A stretch of 64,000 bases of DNA from Candidatus Fimenecus sp. (GTDB lineage Bacteria; Bacillota; Clostridia; Oscillospirales; Acutalibacteraceae): positions 3,562-67,561 of the forward strand of contig JAZNYY010000043.1 of assembly GCA_045594645.1 (NCBI GenBank), read 5' to 3'. The stretch's first letter is position 1. Each line of letters opens with the position of its first letter. The notes under the pieces were generated by a model that saw only the letters and a list, made by a program, of their open reading frames with translations, was not told the DNA's origin and made no database searches. Made by a program: the position numbers and the translations under genes. Positions 3,129 to 62,103 of this stretch are shown here, in pieces.

Positions 3129-4577
3129 ATGTTTTCTATGATTTTTACAATTACATTTCCGTTGATTTGCGGACTTCTTATGCCTCTTTTAAAGAAGCTT
3201 GATAACCGCAAGGTTAAAATGGCAGTTACAATTTCTTTGCAGGCAATCACAACACTTTTTGGTTTGATTACAGTTTTCGGCGATAATGCATCAACAAAAA
3301 GCTTTGTTTTTACCGGTAATCTTACGCTTGGCTTTACCGCTGATTTAGTTGCAAAAACATTTTGTGCAATCGTAACTGTTGCGTGGCTTCTTGTAACAAT
3401 TTACGCCACGGTGTATATGAAGCACGAAAAAAGCGAGGAAAGATTTTTCCTTTTCTCGTTCTTGACAGAGAGTGCAATGCTCGGTGCGTCATTCTCAAAC
3501 AGTCTTGTTTCAATGTATGTATTCTATGAGCTTGTAACATTATTCTCAATGCCCTTGGTGCTTCATTCACTTTCAAGGGAGTCTGTTTCTGCGGCTAAAA
3601 AATACCTTTATTATTCAATCGCGGGTGCATTTATGGCACTTTTCGGCATTTTTGTAATAGGAACAAGTGCGGATACACTCGGTTTTGTAGCAGGCGGTAC
3701 ATTCACAAATGTTACTCCCCTTGTGCTTGTGGCGGTATTCGTAATGTGCTTGGGATTTGGTGCAAAGGCAGGTCTTTTTCCGCTTCACGGTTGGTTGCCA
3801 ACGGCTCACCCCGTTGCCCCCGCGCCAGCGAGTGCTCTGCTTTCAGGTATCATTGCAAAAGCGGGTGTGCTTGCGGTTATCCGCACAGTATTTTTCACAG
3901 TCGGTGCTGACAATATTGCGGGCACTTGGGTGCAAACCTCTTTACTTGTTCTTGCGCTTCTTACAGTTCTTATGGGCTCAATGATGGCTTATCGCGAAAA
4001 GGTATTCAAAAAGCGTCTTGCCTATTCAACGGTCAGTCAGATTTCTTATGTATTCTGCGGTCTTTTTCTCTTTAACGAAGCAGGTGTAGACGGTGCATTA
4101 TGGCAGATTGTGTTCCACGCGGTTGTTAAAGTGGGCTTGTTCCTTTGCGCAGGTGCAGTAATATTCCTTTACGGCAAAACAAAAATTGAAGAGCTTAACG
4201 GTATCGGCAAAAAAATGCCCGTTACCTTTGCGTGCTTTACAATCCTCTCACTTTCACTTATCGGAATTCCTCCAACGGGCGGATTTTTCAGCAAGTGGGA
4301 GCTTGCTACCGCTTCACTTGAAACGGCAGGAATTGGCGCACTCACATGGATTATTCCCGTAATTCTTCTCGTTTCGGCTCTTCTTACTGCAGGATATCTT
4401 CTTGACATCTCAATACGAGCTTTCTTCAAAAATGAAGAAAACGAGGTAAAAGCCGTTAAAGAGCCCAAGCCTATGTGTGCAGTAATCATTGTACTTACAC
4501 TCATTTCTTTGCTCGGCGGTGTGTTCTCGGCACAGACCGAAGCTATTATTTCAACTATTGTTTCTTCACTTTTTTAG
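3129..4577 (+). CDS. Mrp subunit D-like antiporter subunit (copy 2)
   Basis: 482 aa with the core GLFPLHGWLPTAHPVAPAPASALLSGIIAKAG. An RBS (GGGAGG) lies upstream. Confidence 0.8.
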   Translation: MFSMIFTITFPLICGLLMPLLKKLDNRKVKMAVTISLQAITTLFGLITVFGDNASTKSFVFTGNLTLGFTADLVAKTFCAIVTVAWLLVTIYATVYMKHEKSEERFFLFSFLTESAMLGASFSNSLVSMYVFYELVTLFSMPLVLHSLSRESVSAAKKYLYYSIAGAFMALFGIFVIGTSADTLGFVAGGTFTNVTPLVLVAVFVMCLGFGAKAGLFPLHGWLPTAHPVAPAPASALLSGIIAKAGVLAVIRTVFFTVGADNIAGTWVQTSLLVLALLTVLMGSMMAYREKVFKKRLAYSTVSQISYVFCGLFLFNEAGVDGALWQIVFHAVVKVGLFLCAGAVIFLYGKTKIEELNGIGKKMPVTFACFTILSLSLIGIPPTGGFFSKWELATASLETAGIGALTWIIPVILLVSALLTAGYLLDISIRAFFKNEENEVKAVKEPKPMCAVIIVLTLISLLGGVFSAQTEAIISTIVSSLF

Positions 4578-11805: not shown

Positions 11806-11970
11806 AGACTTCCCCCGCCGAGGGGAAGGTGGCACGAGCAACGCGAGTGACGGAAGGGGGGGGATTTAAAACCGCTTTGTCTCTTCGTGACAGCTATCCT
11901 TTTAGGGGAGATGAGTCCCCCCTCAGTCATTTTCTGCGAAAATGACAGCTCCCCCTCAAGGGTGGAGCCC
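11806..11970. repeat. Degenerate copy of the multi-hairpin 'ccttcccc..ggggaagg' intergenic repeat family
   Basis: It shares cttcccc-N-aggggaaggtg, cttcgtgacagct and cctcaagg-gagc blocks with the copies at 38368-38491 and 58534-58665. The 61-aa ORF at 11787-11972 is a translation artefact of this repeat. Confidence 0.6.
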
Positions 11971-38367: not shown

Positions 38368-38491
38368 GCCTTCCCCTTGAGGGGAAGGTGCCGAGGAACG
38401 AGGCGGATGAGGTGTAAAACATTTTAACGGATACTCCGTATCCTACACCTCATCAGTCGCTTCGCGACAGCTTCTCCTCAAGGAGAAGCCC
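38368..38491. repeat. Multi-hairpin intergenic repeat (gene-less copy)
   Basis: gccttccccttgaggggaaggtg..ggatgaggtg..ggatactccgtatcc..cacctcatc..gtcgcttcgcgac..gcttctcctcaaggagaagc. It closely resembles the copy at 58534-58665. Confidence 0.8.
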
Positions 38492-38495
38492 ATTT

Positions 38496-39200
38496 TTATA
38501 ATAATTCTTTTATTCTGCTTTCATATGCCTTTGCTTCATATGTCAAGGGCACATTAACATAATCACTATCTATAAGCTTTATTAAATATTCTGAAAATTT
38601 TGGATTAAGGGGTAAAATTGGTCCTGTGTGATAGGTCGCGAAAAGGTTATTCTTATGCACACCCTCAATATTTGTATCCTTATTCATTCCTGCGCCCTTT
38701 TTCATTTTAAGGAATGGTGCAGGATTTTCACCGTAGGAATGGCTTAAAAGATTTTTAAAGCCCGTGATTTCCATTCCGTCAAACTCGCCCACGCTACAAT
38801 CGTTATAACGAAGTCGCGAAAACTGCTTTGCGTAATATGGAAAAAAATTAAGACATTCGTGCTTTTCACCCTTTGCATCTTCAATATATTCGCCAAAGAT
38901 TTCAAAAGCATTGCCCGTGGCTAAAATTACTCCGCCGTTTTCAATACGATTTTCAATTGCTTCGCGGTATTTTTTAAGGGCTTCAATCTCTATGAGCTGA
39001 TGCTTTTCTTGGCAAGGACCAATAAGAAGAATATCAACCTGACCATTTGCAAAGCGGGGCTCGTCAAAAAGATTAGTTTCAACCAAGTCAACCTCATAGC
39101 CCGCCAAATTCAATTTCTTCGCAAGATATTCAGCGTTTCCGCGATCACCGTAAAGGTTGTTATATTCGGGGTAAAGCACTTCAATTACAAACTTTTTCAT
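38496..39200 (-). CDS. gatD: GatD-like (CobQ-type glutamine amidotransferase partner of MurT), apparently lacking the Cys nucleophile
   Basis: The N-terminus YPEYNNLYGDRGN and the overall sequence are colinear with GatD, and the gene lies 2 nt downstream of murT. The position of the ..CGGYQ.. nucleophile reads ATGNAF (38904-38921). Confidence 0.7.
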   Translation of the reverse strand: MKKFVIEVLYPEYNNLYGDRGNAEYLAKKLNLAGYEVDLVETNLFDEPRFANGQVDILLIGPCQEKHQLIEIEALKKYREAIENRIENGGVILATGNAFEIFGEYIEDAKGEKHECLNFFPYYAKQFSRLRYNDCSVGEFDGMEITGFKNLLSHSYGENPAPFLKMKKGAGMNKDTNIEGVHKNNLFATYHTGPILPLNPKFSEYLIKLIDSDYVNVPLTYEAKAYESRIKELL

Positions 39201-57320: not shown

Positions 57321-58529
57321 ATGACACAATTTTACAAGGCATATTGCAGAGTATTCCAGAAAGTAATGTTTGTTATGGAGTGCTTCTTACCCTGGGGCGA
57401 GCCATTTATGCTCACAGGACCCGGAAGTATCCGCAAGCTCCCAAATCTTATTAAAGAAAAGGGACTCAAGAAAGTGCTTATCGTAACAGATAAGGGACTT
57501 ACTTCTCTTGGACTTTTGAACTCTCTCTATGAAGAGATGGACAACGCAGGCGTTGAGTATGTTGTTTATGACGGCACTCAGCCCAACCCCACAATTGAAA
57601 ACATTGAAGAAGCAAAGGATATGTATCTTCAGAACAATTGTCAGGGTATTATCGCATTCGGTGGCGGCTCACCAATGGACTGTGCAAAGATTGCAGCAGC
57701 AAGAGTTGTTAAACCCCGTCAGCCCGTTGAGAAAATGCGCGGACTTATGAAAATTCTTCATCCGCTGCCCCCATTCTTCGCAGTTCCCACAACTGCAGGT
57801 ACAGGTTCAGAATGCACACTTGCAGCGGTTGTTTCAAACTCAAAAACACACGAAAAGAATGCTTGTAATGACCCATTCCTTCGTCCCCGTTATGCAGTAT
57901 TTGACCCTGAGCTTACAGTGGGGCTTCCTCCTCATATCACATCAACAACAGGTATGGACGCTCTTACTCATGCGGTTGAAGCATACATAGGCAAGAGCAA
58001 TGTGAAATCAACTGCAAACTATGCTGAAAAGGCAACAAAGATGATTTTTGAAAATCTTGAAGTTGCATACACAGACGGCAAGAACATTGAAGCAAGAAAT
58101 CAAATGCTCCTCGCTTCTTTCTATGCAGGTATGGCATTTACTCGCGCTTATGTTGGTTATGTTCACGCAATTGCTCATAACCTTGGTGGTCAGTACGGAA
58201 TCCCCCACGGTCTTGCAAATGCAGTTATTCTCCCCGTAGTTCTCGAAAGCTATGGCGAGGCAGTTTATGACAGACTTGCTCGTCTTGCTGACATCGTTGG
58301 TCTTGAGGGTAATTCAAACGAAGAAAAAGCAAAGAAATTCATTGCTGAAATCTACGCAATGAATGAGAGAATGGGAATTCCCAAGGGCTTTGCACAGATT
58401 CAGGAAAAGGATATTCCGATTATCGTTGAGCGCGCGCTTAAAGAGGGCAACCCACTCTACCCCGTTCCCGTAATCTACGGCGAAGAAGAAATGACAGCAA
58501 TTGTTAAATCATTGATGATTAAGGAATAA
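57321..58529 (+). CDS. Iron-containing (group III) alcohol dehydrogenase
   Basis: The motifs GGGSPMDCAK, AVPTTAGTGSE and HAIAHNLGGQYGIPHG (metal-binding His residues) are present. Confidence 0.85.
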   Translation: MTQFYKAYCRVFQKVMFVMECFLPWGEPFMLTGPGSIRKLPNLIKEKGLKKVLIVTDKGLTSLGLLNSLYEEMDNAGVEYVVYDGTQPNPTIENIEEAKDMYLQNNCQGIIAFGGGSPMDCAKIAAARVVKPRQPVEKMRGLMKILHPLPPFFAVPTTAGTGSECTLAAVVSNSKTHEKNACNDPFLRPRYAVFDPELTVGLPPHITSTTGMDALTHAVEAYIGKSNVKSTANYAEKATKMIFENLEVAYTDGKNIEARNQMLLASFYAGMAFTRAYVGYVHAIAHNLGGQYGIPHGLANAVILPVVLESYGEAVYDRLARLADIVGLEGNSNEEKAKKFIAEIYAMNERMGIPKGFAQIQEKDIPIIVERALKEGNPLYPVPVIYGEEEMTAIVKSLMIKE

Positions 58530-58533
58530 AAAA

Positions 58534-58665
58534 GCCTTCCCCTTGAGGGGAAGGTGGATTTGCCACAAGGCAAAGACGGATGAGGTGGAAAAGCAATTAT
58601 AACGGATACTTCGTATCCTACACCTCATCAGTCACTTCGTGACAGCTTCTCCTCAAGGAGAAGCC
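58534..58665. repeat. Multi-hairpin intergenic repeat (complete copy; 3' hairpin + T-run terminates the ADH gene)
   Basis: Five stems are present: ccttcccc/ggggaagg, tttgcc/ggcaaa, gatgaggtg/cacctcatc enclosing ggatac/gtatcc, gtcac/gtgac, and gcttctcc/ggagaagc followed by TTTTTT. Confidence 0.8.
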
Positions 58666-58669
58666 TTTT

Positions 58670-59023
58670 TTATTGCAAATTAAGATGTCTCATTATATCA
58701 GTACACACACCGTAGAAATTTGTATTCACATCATAATTTGAATATCTTAAAACTGTTAATCCTAACGACTTTAAGAATTCATCTCGTTTAGCATCATTTT
58801 TTTTGCCTTGTTCTTCAAAATGTTGCGAACCGTCAAGTTCAATTATGATTTTTGCTTCTGCACAATAAAAATCTACAATATAATTACCTATCACTTTCTG
58901 TCTGTTGATTGTGATAGGTAATTCTTTTAAGAAGTTATACCAAAGATGCCTTTCCTCTTTAGTCATATTCTTTCGTAATTCCTGTGCATTAGCGGTTAAT
59001 TTTGGATTGTTGGTTTTATTCAC
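58670..59023 (-). CDS. DUF559 (Vsr-like / PD-(D/E)xK fold) endonuclease-domain protein
   Basis: 117 aa. The DUF559 pattern is TKEERHLWYNFLK..RQKVIGNYIVDFYCAEAKIIIELDGSQH...D..RDEFLKSLGLTVLRY. The GTG start lies 5 nt after GAGGTG, which belongs to the repeat arm. Confidence 0.8.
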   Translation of the reverse strand: MNKTNNPKLTANAQELRKNMTKEERHLWYNFLKELPITINRQKVIGNYIVDFYCAEAKIIIELDGSQHFEEQGKKNDAKRDEFLKSLGLTVLRYSNYDVNTNFYGVCTDIMRHLNLQ

Positions 59024-59028
59024 AATAA

Positions 59029-59075
59029 CACCTCATCCGTCACCTACGGTGACACCTTCCCCTCAAGGGGAAGGC
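59029..59075. repeat. Inverted half-copy (L-arm) of the multi-hairpin repeat
   Basis: The reverse complement reads gccttccccttgaggggaaggtg-tcaccgtaggtga-cggatgaggtg. This matches 58534-58590 except for the small variable hairpin. Confidence 0.8.
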
Positions 59076-59090
59076 ATTTCCGCATTGATT

Positions 59091-61793
59091 TTACTTACTA
59101 CTTATCTTACTAATACTCTCTTCAAGCATTGCAAGTTTTTCGTTGTATTTTGCCAGCTTTTCGCGTTGCTCGTTAACAACTGCTTCGGGGGCTTTTGCTA
59201 CGAAGCCTGCATTGTTGAGCTTACCTGAAACGAACGCGATTTCTTTCTCAACTGCTTTCTTTTCTTTCTGAAGTCTTTCGAGCTCTGCCTTGAAGTCAAC
59301 AAGCTCATCCATTGGGATAAAGAGTCTTGCGTCTTCTGTGATAATCGCAACAGCCTCATCATTTTCATAGCCCTTAACGATTTCAACTTCAGAAGCAGAA
59401 GCGAGTCTTACAAAGAAGTTTGCACCTTCACTGAAGGTCTTTTCGTAGGCAGTTTCAATGAAAATCTTTGCTTTCTTTGATGGCGGAACATTCATTTCTG
59501 CACGGCGATTACGAACTGCCTTAATTGCGGTCATAACTCTTTCCATTTCATTTTCTTCAGCCTTGAATGAGAGTTCATCGCTGAATACGGGCCACTGAGA
59601 AATCATAATTGAGTCGCCATCGTGAGGTAATGTCTGCCAAATTTCTTCTGTGATAAATGGCATAAATGGGTGAAGAAGCTTGAGCGTATTTGACATTACA
59701 TAAACAAGAACTGCTTTAACAGTTGCCTTTGCAGTTGCGCATTCACCATTAAGACGGATTTTTGCAATTTCGATATACCAATCGCAGAATACATCCCAAA
59801 TAAAGTCATAAAGCTTCTGTACAGCAAGACCGAGTTCAAACTTTTCAAGTGAGTCTGTAACATCTTTTACAAGGTCATTATATTTTGACAAAATCCACTT
59901 ATCTTCAATAGCAAGATTCTTTGGCACATAAGGTGCATATTCGTTTTCATCAAGGTTCATAAGGATGAAACGAGCAGCATTCCAAATCTTGTTAGCAAAG
60001 TTTCTACTTGCCTCAACCTTTTCGTCAGAGAAACGCATATCGTTTCCGGGGCTGTTACCTGTTGCAAGAGTAAAGCGGAGTGCGTCAGCACCGTACTGGT
60101 CGATAATCTCAAGTGGGTCAATACCGTTACCGAGAGATTTTGACATCTTTCTACCTTGAGCATCACGAACAAGACCGTGAATAAGAACAGTGACAAAAGG
60201 AACTTTTCCTGTGTACTCAAGAGCAGAGAAAATCATACGAGATACCCAGAAGCCGATAATATCATAGCCTGTTACAAGGGTATTTGTTGGGTAATAATGC
60301 TTCAAATCCTCTGTCTGCTCAGGCCAACCAAGTGTTGAGAATGGCCAGAGTGCTGATGAGAACCAAGTATCAAGTGTGTCTTCATCTTGACGGATATTCG
60401 CACTGTTACATTTTGGACAAGCTGTCAAATGCTCTTTTGTAACAATTGTTTCACCACAATCATCACAATACCAAGCGGGAATTCTGTGTCCCCACCAAAG
60501 CTGACGAGAAATACACCAGTCGCGAGTACCGTTCATCCAGTTAAGGTAATTCTTTGTAAATCTTTCGGGAATAAACTTTGTTTCGCCTTTTTCAACGGCT
60601 TCAATAGCGGGCTTTGCAAGGGGAACCATACGAACAAACCACTGCTTTGAAACCATTGGCTCAATTGTGTTATGACAACGATAGCAAGTGCCAACCTCGT
60701 GCTTGCGGGGCTCAACCTCTTTAAGATATCCGCCTGCTTTAAGGTCTTCGAGGATTGCTTTTCTTGCCTCTTTTGTGGTCATACCTGCATATTTACCGCA
60801 GTCAAGAACCTCGGGCTCATTTTCTGTTGCACGACCGCTTGCGATAAGCTCGTCGGCAATTCTCTTATCCTCTGCACCTGTGAGGTGACCATCATAAGTG
60901 AATGTACGAACAATGCGAAGATTATTTCTTTGACCAACCTCAAAGTCATTGGGGTCATGAGCAGGAGTGATTTTAACAACACCCGTACCCTTTGTCATAT
61001 CTGCGTGCTCGTCACATACAATCGGGATTTCTTTATTGAGAAGTGGCAAAATTACATGGCAACCGTGAAGATGCTTATATCTTTCATCCTCTGCATTGAT
61101 TGCAACTGCAGTATCACCGAGCATTGTTTCGGGACGAGTAGTAGCAAGCTCAAGCTTTTCGCCCGTTTCTTTAACTGTATAAAGAAGATGCCAGAAGCTA
61201 CCGTCCTGCTCTTCATATTCAACCTCTGCATCAGAAATTGATGTGTTACAGCAAGGGCACCAGTTAACCATACGGTTACCGCGATAAATCAAATCCTTTT
61301 CATAAAGACGGCAGAAAACCTCGTTAACAGCCTTACTGCAGCCCTCATCAAGAGTGAAACGCTCTCTGTCCCAGTCACAAGATGAACCTAATTTCTTTAA
61401 CTGTTCAATAATTCTGCCACCGTACTGCTTTTTCCAGTCCCAAGCGCGCTCTAAGAAGCCGTCACGGCCTAAATCCTCTTTGCTGATGCCTTCTTTTCTC
61501 ATAGCCTCAACGATTTTTGCCTCAGTTGCAATTGAAGCGTGGTCAGTACCTGGAAGCCAAAGTGTGTCATACCCCGCCATTCTGTGATAACGGATAAGAA
61601 TATCCTGCAATGTGTTATCAAGAGCATGGCCCATATGAAGCTGGCCTGTGATGTTTGGGGGCGGAATTACGATTGTGTAAGTCTTTTTGCCCTCTTCACG
61701 CTTTGCGTGAAAATATTTGTTGTCGAGCCAGTCTTTATATATTCTGTCTTCAACATTTTTCGGATTATACTGTTTTTCAAGTTCCTTGGACAT
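59091..61793 (-). CDS. valS: Valine--tRNA ligase
   Basis: HIGH (LHMGHAL), KMSKS (KMSKSLGN), an editing domain, and a C-terminal coiled coil are present. ATG 61793 (MSKELEKQYNP) is preferred over 61877, which lies in the leader. Confidence 0.95.
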   Translation of the reverse strand: MSKELEKQYNPKNVEDRIYKDWLDNKYFHAKREEGKKTYTIVIPPPNITGQLHMGHALDNTLQDILIRYHRMAGYDTLWLPGTDHASIATEAKIVEAMRKEGISKEDLGRDGFLERAWDWKKQYGGRIIEQLKKLGSSCDWDRERFTLDEGCSKAVNEVFCRLYEKDLIYRGNRMVNWCPCCNTSISDAEVEYEEQDGSFWHLLYTVKETGEKLELATTRPETMLGDTAVAINAEDERYKHLHGCHVILPLLNKEIPIVCDEHADMTKGTGVVKITPAHDPNDFEVGQRNNLRIVRTFTYDGHLTGAEDKRIADELIASGRATENEPEVLDCGKYAGMTTKEARKAILEDLKAGGYLKEVEPRKHEVGTCYRCHNTIEPMVSKQWFVRMVPLAKPAIEAVEKGETKFIPERFTKNYLNWMNGTRDWCISRQLWWGHRIPAWYCDDCGETIVTKEHLTACPKCNSANIRQDEDTLDTWFSSALWPFSTLGWPEQTEDLKHYYPTNTLVTGYDIIGFWVSRMIFSALEYTGKVPFVTVLIHGLVRDAQGRKMSKSLGNGIDPLEIIDQYGADALRFTLATGNSPGNDMRFSDEKVEASRNFANKIWNAARFILMNLDENEYAPYVPKNLAIEDKWILSKYNDLVKDVTDSLEKFELGLAVQKLYDFIWDVFCDWYIEIAKIRLNGECATAKATVKAVLVYVMSNTLKLLHPFMPFITEEIWQTLPHDGDSIMISQWPVFSDELSFKAEENEMERVMTAIKAVRNRRAEMNVPPSKKAKIFIETAYEKTFSEGANFFVRLASASEVEIVKGYENDEAVAIITEDARLFIPMDELVDFKAELERLQKEKKAVEKEIAFVSGKLNNAGFVAKAPEAVVNEQREKLAKYNEKLAMLEESISKISSK

Positions 61794-61821
61794 ATATATC
61801 ATTCCTTTCGGTTTGTTTATT

Positions 61822-62050
61822 AAAATAAAACGCCCCATACATAAAAGTATGAGGCGAAATAAATTCCGTGGTACCACTCAAATTGCTAATGTTATACAAA
61901 AGCCACTTAAAATTCTTAACGGGAATTACGCGTTTTTACTTAACGGCAATTATTTGCTTTAGGCAAAACCACTCGAAAGCTACATATCAATTTAAAGGCT
62001 GTATTGTCTTGCACCAAACGACAACTCTCTGAAAGCGAGCTCAATAAATC
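61822..62050 (-). promoter_or_regulatory. T-box riboswitch leader of valS
   Basis: The minus strand shows an AGAGAG box, a GGTGCAAG distal-loop motif, the T-box sequence AATTTGAGTGGTACCACGG (61884-61866), and the terminator cgcctcatac-ttttat-gtatggggcg followed by TTTTATTTT. The candidate specifier is GUA (61983-61981). Confidence 0.8.
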
Positions 62051-62103
62051 TTACTCTTTGTCATAGTGTTTGTTTTATTCAATTCCAAGATATTTTATCA
62101 ATA

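Follow-up and report, generated by a model that had tools for sequence, protein, structure and literature searches.

Why does a single gene for a DUF559 nuclease lie between inverted copies of a structured repeat, and what kind of repeat is it? We addressed this question in a stretch of 64,000 nucleotides from the gut bacterium Candidatus Fimenecus sp. (assembly GCA_045594645.1, contig JAZNYY010000043.1, positions 3,562 to 67,561 of the forward strand), the whole of which is called the window below. An earlier note on this DNA had described the gene as the only open reading frame of an about 540-base-pair (bp) unit with inverted arms at its two ends, and had proposed that the protein mobilises the repeat, as in insertion sequences (IS) and miniature inverted-repeat transposable elements (MITEs), or as in repetitive extragenic palindromic (REP) elements and their REP-associated tyrosine transposases (RAYTs). 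On the basis of current results, the arms are potential intrastrand DNA triplexes, and the DUF559 locus with its arms is, as far as sequence can tell, the Clostridial version of the BoxC/PIT/TMECO repeats of Escherichia coli together with the gene ycjD. The repeat kind and the DUF559 family are each known already, and it is their link that appears to be new: among the papers searched, none linked DUF559, ycjD, COG2852 or PF04480 with triplexes, BoxC, PIT or repeat elements.

The inverted structured repeat was readily recovered at 58534-58587 and 59029-59075, where two pairs of segments are complementary in inverted orientation (58530-58556 with 59053-59079, 27 nucleotides, 96%; 58575-58587 with 59029-59041, 13 nucleotides, 100%). 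The inverted arms of the proposed unit therefore stand, whereas its restriction to two arms does not, because a third arm on the minus strand had been overlooked; in the sequence of 58200-59500, three repeat copies surround the single open reading frame. The features of the locus are the following:

58534-58587, plus strand: arm A1, a triplex motif with the pyrimidine strand CCTTCCCC at 58535-58542, a TTGA loop and the purine strand GGGGAAGG at 58547-58554.
58559-58574, plus strand: second loop (loop 2) of arm A1, with the mini-hairpin TTTGCC-ACAA-GGCAAA.
58578-58585, plus strand: mirror third strand of arm A1, GGATGAGG, followed by TG.
58588-58620, no strand assigned: spacer of 33 nucleotides of a gene-less pair, with the small hairpin GGATAC-TTC-GTATCC at 58604-58618.
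58621-58664, minus strand: arm B, a variant arm, GCTTCTCC-TTGA-GGAGAAGC, TG, mini-hairpin GTCAC-GAA-GTGAC, then C-TGATGAGG-TG with TGATGAGG as third strand.
58670-59023, minus strand: DUF559 gene (YcjD-type, Vsr-like PD-(D/E)xK), 117 amino acids, GTG start, PF04480 with E=1.7e-32.
59029-59075, minus strand: arm A2, GCCTTCCCC-TTGA-GGGGAAGG, TG, mini-hairpin GTCACC-GTA-GGTGAC, third strand GGATGAGG, TG.

Arm A1 thus reads, on the plus strand, GCCTTCCCC-TTGA-GGGGAAGG, TG, a small hairpin and C-GGATGAGG-TG, and the order of the locus on the minus strand is A> DUF559 B> spacer <A. Because arm B is present, A1 and B together (58534-58664) make up a complete inverted A/B pair without a gene, like that at 38368-38489, in which the spacer hairpin recurs almost unchanged (38431-38445). 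Such sequences were far above chance level in the window: the box CGGATGAGGTG with at most one mismatch occurred five times (0.46 expected), the hairpin three times (0.01 expected), and a strict scan for the whole architecture detected five arms, compared with none in each of 20 shuffles. As single-stranded DNA, the repeat pairs had folding z-scores of -6.5 to -7.4. An Rfam scan of the repeats at both gathering and permissive thresholds assigned them to no RNA family and gave only chance-level hairpin matches, for example to miRNA precursors. A hammerhead ribozyme, considered on account of CTGATGAG in arm B, was ruled out, since stem II is not followed by GAAA and the box pairs with its own inverted copy.

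What the arms have in common is a plan comprising a pyrimidine strand, a loop, a purine strand, a loop 2 with a mini-hairpin, and a mirror-image purine third strand. The box that had caught attention in the earlier note does not stand by itself: under the purine-motif triplex rules (G·G, A·A and T·A), it mirrors the purine strand of the first hairpin. GGGGAAGG and GGATGAGG mirror each other at 7 of 8 positions, the same value (7/8) was obtained for all five arms of this architecture in the window, and many relatives reach 8/8. We examined 79 Clostridial DUF559 loci, in which 57 upstream arms had a pyrimidine/purine hairpin; 81% of these arms showed a mirror of at least 7/8, compared with 25% when hairpins and tracts were paired across families as a control. 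The mirror rule was also obeyed by lineage variants (GGAGAAGG with GGATGAGG, AGGGGAGG with GGAGGGGT, AAGGGAGG with GGAGGGAT, AAGGGGAG with GAGGGGAT, and AGGAGAGG with GGAGTGGT), and 34 different purine strands were found across phyla, every one with a third strand that matches it. The sequence of the arm co-varies with the lineage of the DUF559 protein. The possibility that the box is a protein half-site, repeated directly, was rejected, as the box matches the purine strand as a mirror; for example, AGGGGAGG and GGAGGGGT form an 8/8 mirror and only a 4/8 direct repeat.

Repeats of the BoxC/PIT/TMECO kind have been recognised in E. coli since the 1990s. They have been described by Bachellier 1999, Hoyne & Maher 2000 and Holder et al. 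2015 (PMC4666352), and are defined as CCCTCNCCC N3-6 GGGNGAGGG N3 GGGNGAGGG (PMC4666352). E. coli K-12 contains 23 TMECOs, including five inverted pairs in each of which a type A is combined with a type B, and TMECO oligonucleotides form stable intrastrand triplexes in vitro, as determined by circular dichroism and nuclear magnetic resonance (PMC4666352). The arms studied here are alike in the succession of a pyrimidine strand, a loop of 3-6 nucleotides, a purine strand, a second loop and a mirror purine third strand. They are likewise intergenic, dispersed and multi-copy, their A and B types form inverted A-B pairs, and their loci vary between relatives. The hairpins CCTTCCCC-TTGA-GGGGAAGG and GCTTCTCC-TTGA-GGAGAAGC lie within the TMECO range (8-9 nucleotides, loop of 3-6), and the third strands of the window arms form the mirror of the class II purine motif. 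The two groups differ in four respects. First, the stems in the window have 8 nucleotides with A/T positions (CCTTCCCC, GGGGAAGG and GGATGAGG), whereas those of TMECOs have 9 and are of the CCCTCNCCC type. Second, loop 2 has 13-23 nucleotides and a compensated mini-hairpin in the window but only 3 nucleotides (TTA or CCG) in E. coli, and the window arms are therefore a variant rather than the E. coli consensus. Third, the host is a bacterium of the class Clostridia here, and E. coli and other bacteria there. Finally, no mobility-related gene was found near TMECO motifs (PMC4666352) and no associated gene is reported in the TMECO papers, whereas a DUF559 gene stands among the arms both here and at E. 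coli ycjD.

The long loop 2, which folds into a mini-hairpin in the window arms, appeared to be a general property of the Clostridial repeats. We found 179 distinct loop 2 sequences among 249 arms, and 91% of them folded with at least four pairs, compared with 47% of shuffled sequences. Their triloops are mostly of the form GNA, the GCGAAGC type being dominant; outside Clostridia, loop 2 has mostly 2-4 nucleotides, as in E. coli. The oligonucleotide d(GCGAAGC) forms a DNA mini-hairpin of unusual stability. Purine-motif triplexes, for their part, do not form in RNA (PMC4666352). These two points together favour single-stranded DNA as the form of the arms that would matter.

Is the neighbourhood of gene and repeat particular to this locus? 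A protein-seeded search yielded at least 578 relatives, and the Clostridial association was counted in the best 80, which come from 80 different assemblies. In a generic motif scan, the triplex motif was present beside 67 of 76 Clostridial DUF559 genes, and 134 control windows taken 1 kb or more away had none. At 50 of the 78 loci that could be assessed, the two flanks of the gene formed inverted repeats (threshold 19; control maxima mostly 11-18). The commonest layout was arm> gene <arm (23 loci), and that of the window, arm> gene arm> spacer <arm, was found in 6 loci. A second scan, for which E. coli YcjD headed the seed alignment, matched genes in Enterobacter, alpha-, beta-, gamma- and delta-proteobacteria, Nitrospirota, Planctomycetota, Chloroflexota, Patescibacteria, Bacteroidota and others; here 58 of 67 assessable genes were flanked by the motif, which occurred in only 1 of 66 far-flank controls and, in all ten shuffles, beside none of the 67 genes. 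Thus, the expectation of the earlier note that DUF559 genes would be consistently flanked by the arms held well beyond Clostridia.

A scan for the A-type hairpin with one genome per species detected at least 120 loci from many Clostridia, Selenomonadaceae, Dialister and Bifidobacterium, and a full DUF559 gene stood directly beside the arm in 10 of the loci listed. The gene-less pairs are unlikely to be internal-deletion derivatives, an idea that was rejected because neither the start region nor a remnant of the gene was detected in 59 pair spacers (0/59); the sole exception is a locus (L044) where a DUF559 remnant of 24 codons lies between two arms. The exact A-type hairpin of 22 nucleotides together with the box was also observed in Bifidobacterium (L024, L029 and L075), Dialister (L026) and Selenomonadales (L036, L043, L055 and L058), with no DUF559 gene within the fetched stretches of these loci. 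Its occurrence in such distant phyla and classes suggests horizontal spread of the arm family. Carriage by phages or plasmids was rejected: the DUF559 family is rare in viral contigs (16 loci in IMG/VR), and plasmids account for only 5 of 3381 places of E. coli ycjD and 39 of 85360 places of TMECO.

The gene itself was correctly recognised from the beginning. The open reading frame of 117 amino acids is the sole DUF559 gene in the window, and PF04480 is the only Pfam family matched by its product. Its GTG start is located 5 nucleotides (TTATT) past the GGATGAGGTG box of arm A2, so that the third strand doubles as Shine-Dalgarno sequence; the use of the box as ribosome-binding site had been proposed in the earlier note. 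Orthologues have ATG at the same position. In keeping with a Shine-Dalgarno role, 40 of 57 loci have a third strand whose end lies at most 10 nucleotides ahead of the start codon. The GC content of the coding sequence is 30%, compared with 41% for the window, and that of the flanking arm is 62%.

By sequence, the only solved relative is 3HRL, a structural-genomics DUF559 protein (E=2.8e-14). An AlphaFold2 model (pLDDT 84) matched both 3HRL and the catalytic domain of I-Bth0305I with a TM-score of about 0.75 (target-normalised), and Vsr and TnsA were weaker structural matches. Nine residues (D51, E62, D64, Q67, H68, D77, R80, R93 and N96), among them the conserved catalytic residues D51, E62, D64 and H68, as well as the N-terminal motif LR..MT..ER.LW, are invariant from E. 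coli to Clostridia. The protein thus resembles I-Bth0305I (EDxHD family) and Vsr in its nuclease fold and in a conserved acidic/His catalytic constellation, but it is a stand-alone protein of 117 amino acids outside any intron or intein and has no separate DNA-binding domain. The model also matched mitoribosomal RAP-domain proteins from apicomplexans and ciliates (9i05, 9g6k and 6z1p), and the fold is therefore used for binding structured RNA as well.

The E. coli gene ycjD offers an independent view of the same arrangement. TMECO-9 is located 168 nucleotides downstream of ycjD on the same strand, the 3' end of ycjD runs into a degenerate hairpin of the TMECO kind, a partial duplicate of this 3' end lies between ycjD and TMECO-9, and the GTG start is in a AATGAGGTG box inside a perfect 17-bp hairpin. 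The gene occurs once per genome in 3378 of 5426 complete E. coli genomes, and TMECO-like places number 1-31 per genome (median 17). In a sample of 60 evenly spaced genomes, TMECO places other than that at ycjD numbered 10-27 (median 18) in the 37 ycjD-positive genomes and 1-14 (median 3) in the 23 ycjD-negative ones (Mann-Whitney p=1.7e-10). Between sapF and fabI, ycjD with TMECO-9 and a 7.5-kb efflux cluster (eefRABCD and a major facilitator superfamily gene) are alternative occupants (L212:5041-5828 in K-12; L344) (PMC12817139), and homology to K-12 resumes about 40 nucleotides past TMECO-9. Between hrpB and mrcB, K-12 carries a pair plus 14 extra nucleotides (117 in total) in place of 15 nucleotides in a ycjD-negative strain, without any duplication.

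The window DUF559 and GatD-like proteins had no exact-sequence record, and a 97%-identical relative and orthologues were used instead. The 97%-identical relative (L201), a sister species represented in many metagenomes (L202-L205) and another two species of Candidatus Fimenecus all have the order of ValS, DUF559 and an iron-type alcohol dehydrogenase (Fe-ADH) together with the three arms, and the gene was always at the ValS/Fe-ADH site in the Fimenecus genomes compared. The ratio of non-synonymous to synonymous substitutions (dN/dS) was 0.07-0.13 at dS of 0.6-1.1 between species, indicating purifying selection on DUF559, and the stems of the arms were unchanged between Fimenecus species. On a sister-species contig (L206:1843-2433), a Prok-RING_1 gene instead of Fe-ADH follows DUF559, the rearrangement breakpoint being at the repeat pair.

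The other gene-less pairs of the window are the following:

38368-38489, no strand assigned: gene-less A/B inverted pair of the same family as the arms of the DUF559 locus, with arm A (plus strand) at 38368-38414 and arm B (minus strand) at 38446-38489.
11809-11967, no strand assigned: A/B inverted pair of a second triplex-motif family, with the left arm (plus strand) at 11809-11859 and the right arm (minus strand) at 11918-11967.

The first, placed by the earlier note at 38368-38491, is directly after the stop codon of a GatD-like gene (38496-39200, minus strand). The closest relatives (L213, with 93% amino-acid identity, and L215, L217, L222, L223, L226 and L227) lack it in the corresponding intergenic region; in L241 the pair lies at another position, and in three further relatives the region holds pairs of another family (L219, L228 and L233). 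The second, which had been taken for a degenerate copy at 11806-11970, proved to be a pair of another family with the same architecture: its left arm combines GGGGAAGG with GGAAGGGG in a perfect 8/8 mirror, and its right arm GGGGGAGC with TGAGGGGG, with a mini-hairpin at 11927-11945. Thus, the comparison of filled and empty sites revealed one gene-less pair (38368-38489) that is missing in relatives, whereas movement of the gene-carrying copy was not observed. Target-site duplications, which the earlier note had recommended looking for, were found neither around 38368-38489 nor at the hrpB-mrcB site of E. coli.

Several other small elements were observed in or around these repeats. Hairpins starting with GTAG and resembling REP (for example TAGTAGGGCGGGGGCTTGCTCCCGCC) are present just downstream of the GatD-like gene in nine loci (L214-L216, L218, L220, L221, L228, L238 and L241); they belong to a separate repeat family and are found at the very place between genes where the window has its triplex-motif pair. 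A nearly identical sequence of about 62 nucleotides (GTGCGGGTGTCCAGTGGACACCTCTGCAAAGCAGAAGCACTG...) was found in L122 (about 3300-3365), where it splits the first hairpin of arm B, and downstream of the GatD-like gene in L233, and looks like a third small repeat landing in or beside arms. Tandem duplications of about 400-456 bp, each with a repeat pair and identical upstream flanks, are present at L012:1428-1900 and L032:4497-4974. Many metagenomic contigs end in or beside arms (L205, L207, L213, L214, L219, L224, L233 and L241); short-read assemblies are broken by the repeat. The valS gene next to the DUF559 locus (59091-61877, minus strand) has a T-box leader upstream, at 61847-62073 on the minus strand (RF00230, 106 bits).

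Which known system does the whole resemble most? With REP/RAYT it shares a single-copy, vertically inherited gene with inverted copies of a short structured repeat on both sides, a repeat that is otherwise scattered as singlets and inverted doublets, a repeat type that matches the gene lineage, and the lack of target-site duplication. However, the RAYT (TnpA-REP) is an HUH Y1 transposase and not a Vsr-like PD-(D/E)xK nuclease, and the arms lack the GTAG signature of REP and have a triplex-type mirror strand instead; the chemistry of any spread must differ. With IS and MITEs it shares terminal inverted repeats around one open reading frame and gene-less short versions elsewhere, but there is no transposase fold or domain and no target-site duplication, and the gene-carrying copy was immobile on the timescale examined. 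Of the two patterns named in the earlier note, that of REP/RAYT is therefore supported by the stable single-copy gene, its association with arms that track its lineage and the absence of one gene-less pair from the same site in relatives, whereas that of a mobile IS/MITE-like gene unit is not, the gene having kept the same ValS/Fe-ADH site up to dS of about 1.

We propose that the locus would be the resident 'master' copy of a two-part system. One part would be a dispersed triplex-type repeat, present as single arms and inverted A/B pairs in intergenic DNA; the other would be the single-copy DUF559 nuclease gene between arms, for which the third strand of the upstream arm would serve as ribosome-binding site. 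The nuclease might recognise the arms of its own lineage when they are folded in single-stranded DNA and nick beside them, and host replication or repair could then copy the arms to new sites or maintain them there. Such a relationship would be like that of REP and RAYT, although both the fold of the enzyme and the structure of the DNA differ. We lean slightly towards the view that the arms are bound or cut by the nuclease and owe their spread or maintenance to this action. More tentatively, YcjD/DUF559 proteins in general could be bacteria-wide, lineage-tuned nucleases that recognise an intrastrand triplex and seed, spread or maintain BoxC/PIT-type repeats, a wider claim that we regard as possible but somewhat doubtful.

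It should be noted that several observations weigh against this proposal. A lone PD-(D/E)xK nuclease has no strand-transfer chemistry, so that host functions would be required for any spread. No stable triplex was detected when E. coli was footprinted in vivo (PMC4666352). The motif is missing at about 12% of DUF559 genes, and the 59 pair spacers hold no gene remnant. In E. coli, the difference in TMECO number follows phylogroups with only about three independent contrasts (PMC12817139), two ycjD-positive genomes with the divergent allele resemble their ycjD-negative relatives in having just 10 and 13 other TMECOs, and genomes without ycjD retain up to 14. Since the correlation tracks phylogroups and the divergent-allele genomes have low numbers, the link between the presence of ycjD and TMECO number is suggestive, not decisive.

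Three other explanations were considered. The one that survives best, although we think it unlikely, is that DUF559 is a Vsr-like caretaker of the host, which processes mismatches or stalled structures at triplex-prone repeats or performs very-short-patch repair linked to a cytosine methyltransferase, the arms beside the gene being regulatory, for example in the control of translation through the third strand with its Shine-Dalgarno sequence, and the repeats spreading by other means. Vertical inheritance and purifying selection would be expected of such a gene, the fold is that of Vsr, and a Shine-Dalgarno sequence inside the arm (in E. coli, inside the perfect 17-bp hairpin) could well be a regulatory device. 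In Caulobacter, deletion of a cytosine methyltransferase leads to SOS induction by the DUF559 protein VsrA, and active nucleases tied to methylation are thus possible in this family (PMC12907096). However, unlike for Vsr, inspection of open reading frames in the window revealed no methyltransferase gene, of dcm type or otherwise, adjoining the DUF559 gene. The two-sided inverted arms across phyla and their tracking of the protein lineage are left unexplained, and the sampled E. coli genomes without ycjD have fewer repeats, not more.

It is distinctly improbable, in our opinion, that DUF559 is a selfish homing gene, that is, a free-standing endonuclease gene that inserts into repeat pairs, which would then be independent landing pads. 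That a genome has one copy of the gene but tens of candidate landing pads is hard to reconcile with homing, as are the occupation of the same site throughout the genus at dS of about 1 under strong purifying selection and the rarity of the gene in viral contigs and on plasmids. Nevertheless, some features would agree with it: the structural similarity to the homing endonuclease I-Bth0305I, the low GC content of the gene (30% vs 41%), the layout of the window (gene and one arm next to a complete pair), which resembles insertion beside or into a pair, the direct downstream arm in 25 of 76 loci, and the replacement of the eef operon by ycjD at sapF-fabI in several E. coli lineages (PMC12817139). 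That the arms are plain transcription signals, namely intrinsic terminators or RNA-stabilising hairpins with DUF559 only incidentally adjacent, is scarcely credible: T-runs follow the outer hairpins of the 58534-58664 pair on both strands, the pair lies between convergent genes and predicted folding is strong (z of about -7), but the association at about 87% of loci across phyla against about 0-1% of controls contradicts this reading, neither the mirror third strand nor the upstream arm has a terminator role, and PIT elements had no terminator or promoter activity in E. coli (cited in PMC4666352).

Up to now, TMECO repeats have been known to form stable triplexes in vitro and to mark unstable loci, and neither a function nor a partner protein is reported in the BoxC/PIT/TMECO papers that we found; DUF559 (PF04480) is a very large family without an assigned role, of which ycjD is the E. 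coli member. Their co-varying association across phyla provides each of them with a concrete and testable partner, and the DUF559 family may be the long-missing partner of BoxC repeats. If the link is functional, the biology of gene-associated genomic repeats would gain an enzyme class and a DNA structure that are new to it, and one cause of instability between genes and of broken assemblies in gut-bacterial genomes would be explained. If the proposal of a triplex-recognising nuclease is true, the system would be a second, mechanistically unrelated counterpart of REP/RAYT, and a natural substrate for a triplex-specific enzyme would have been identified.

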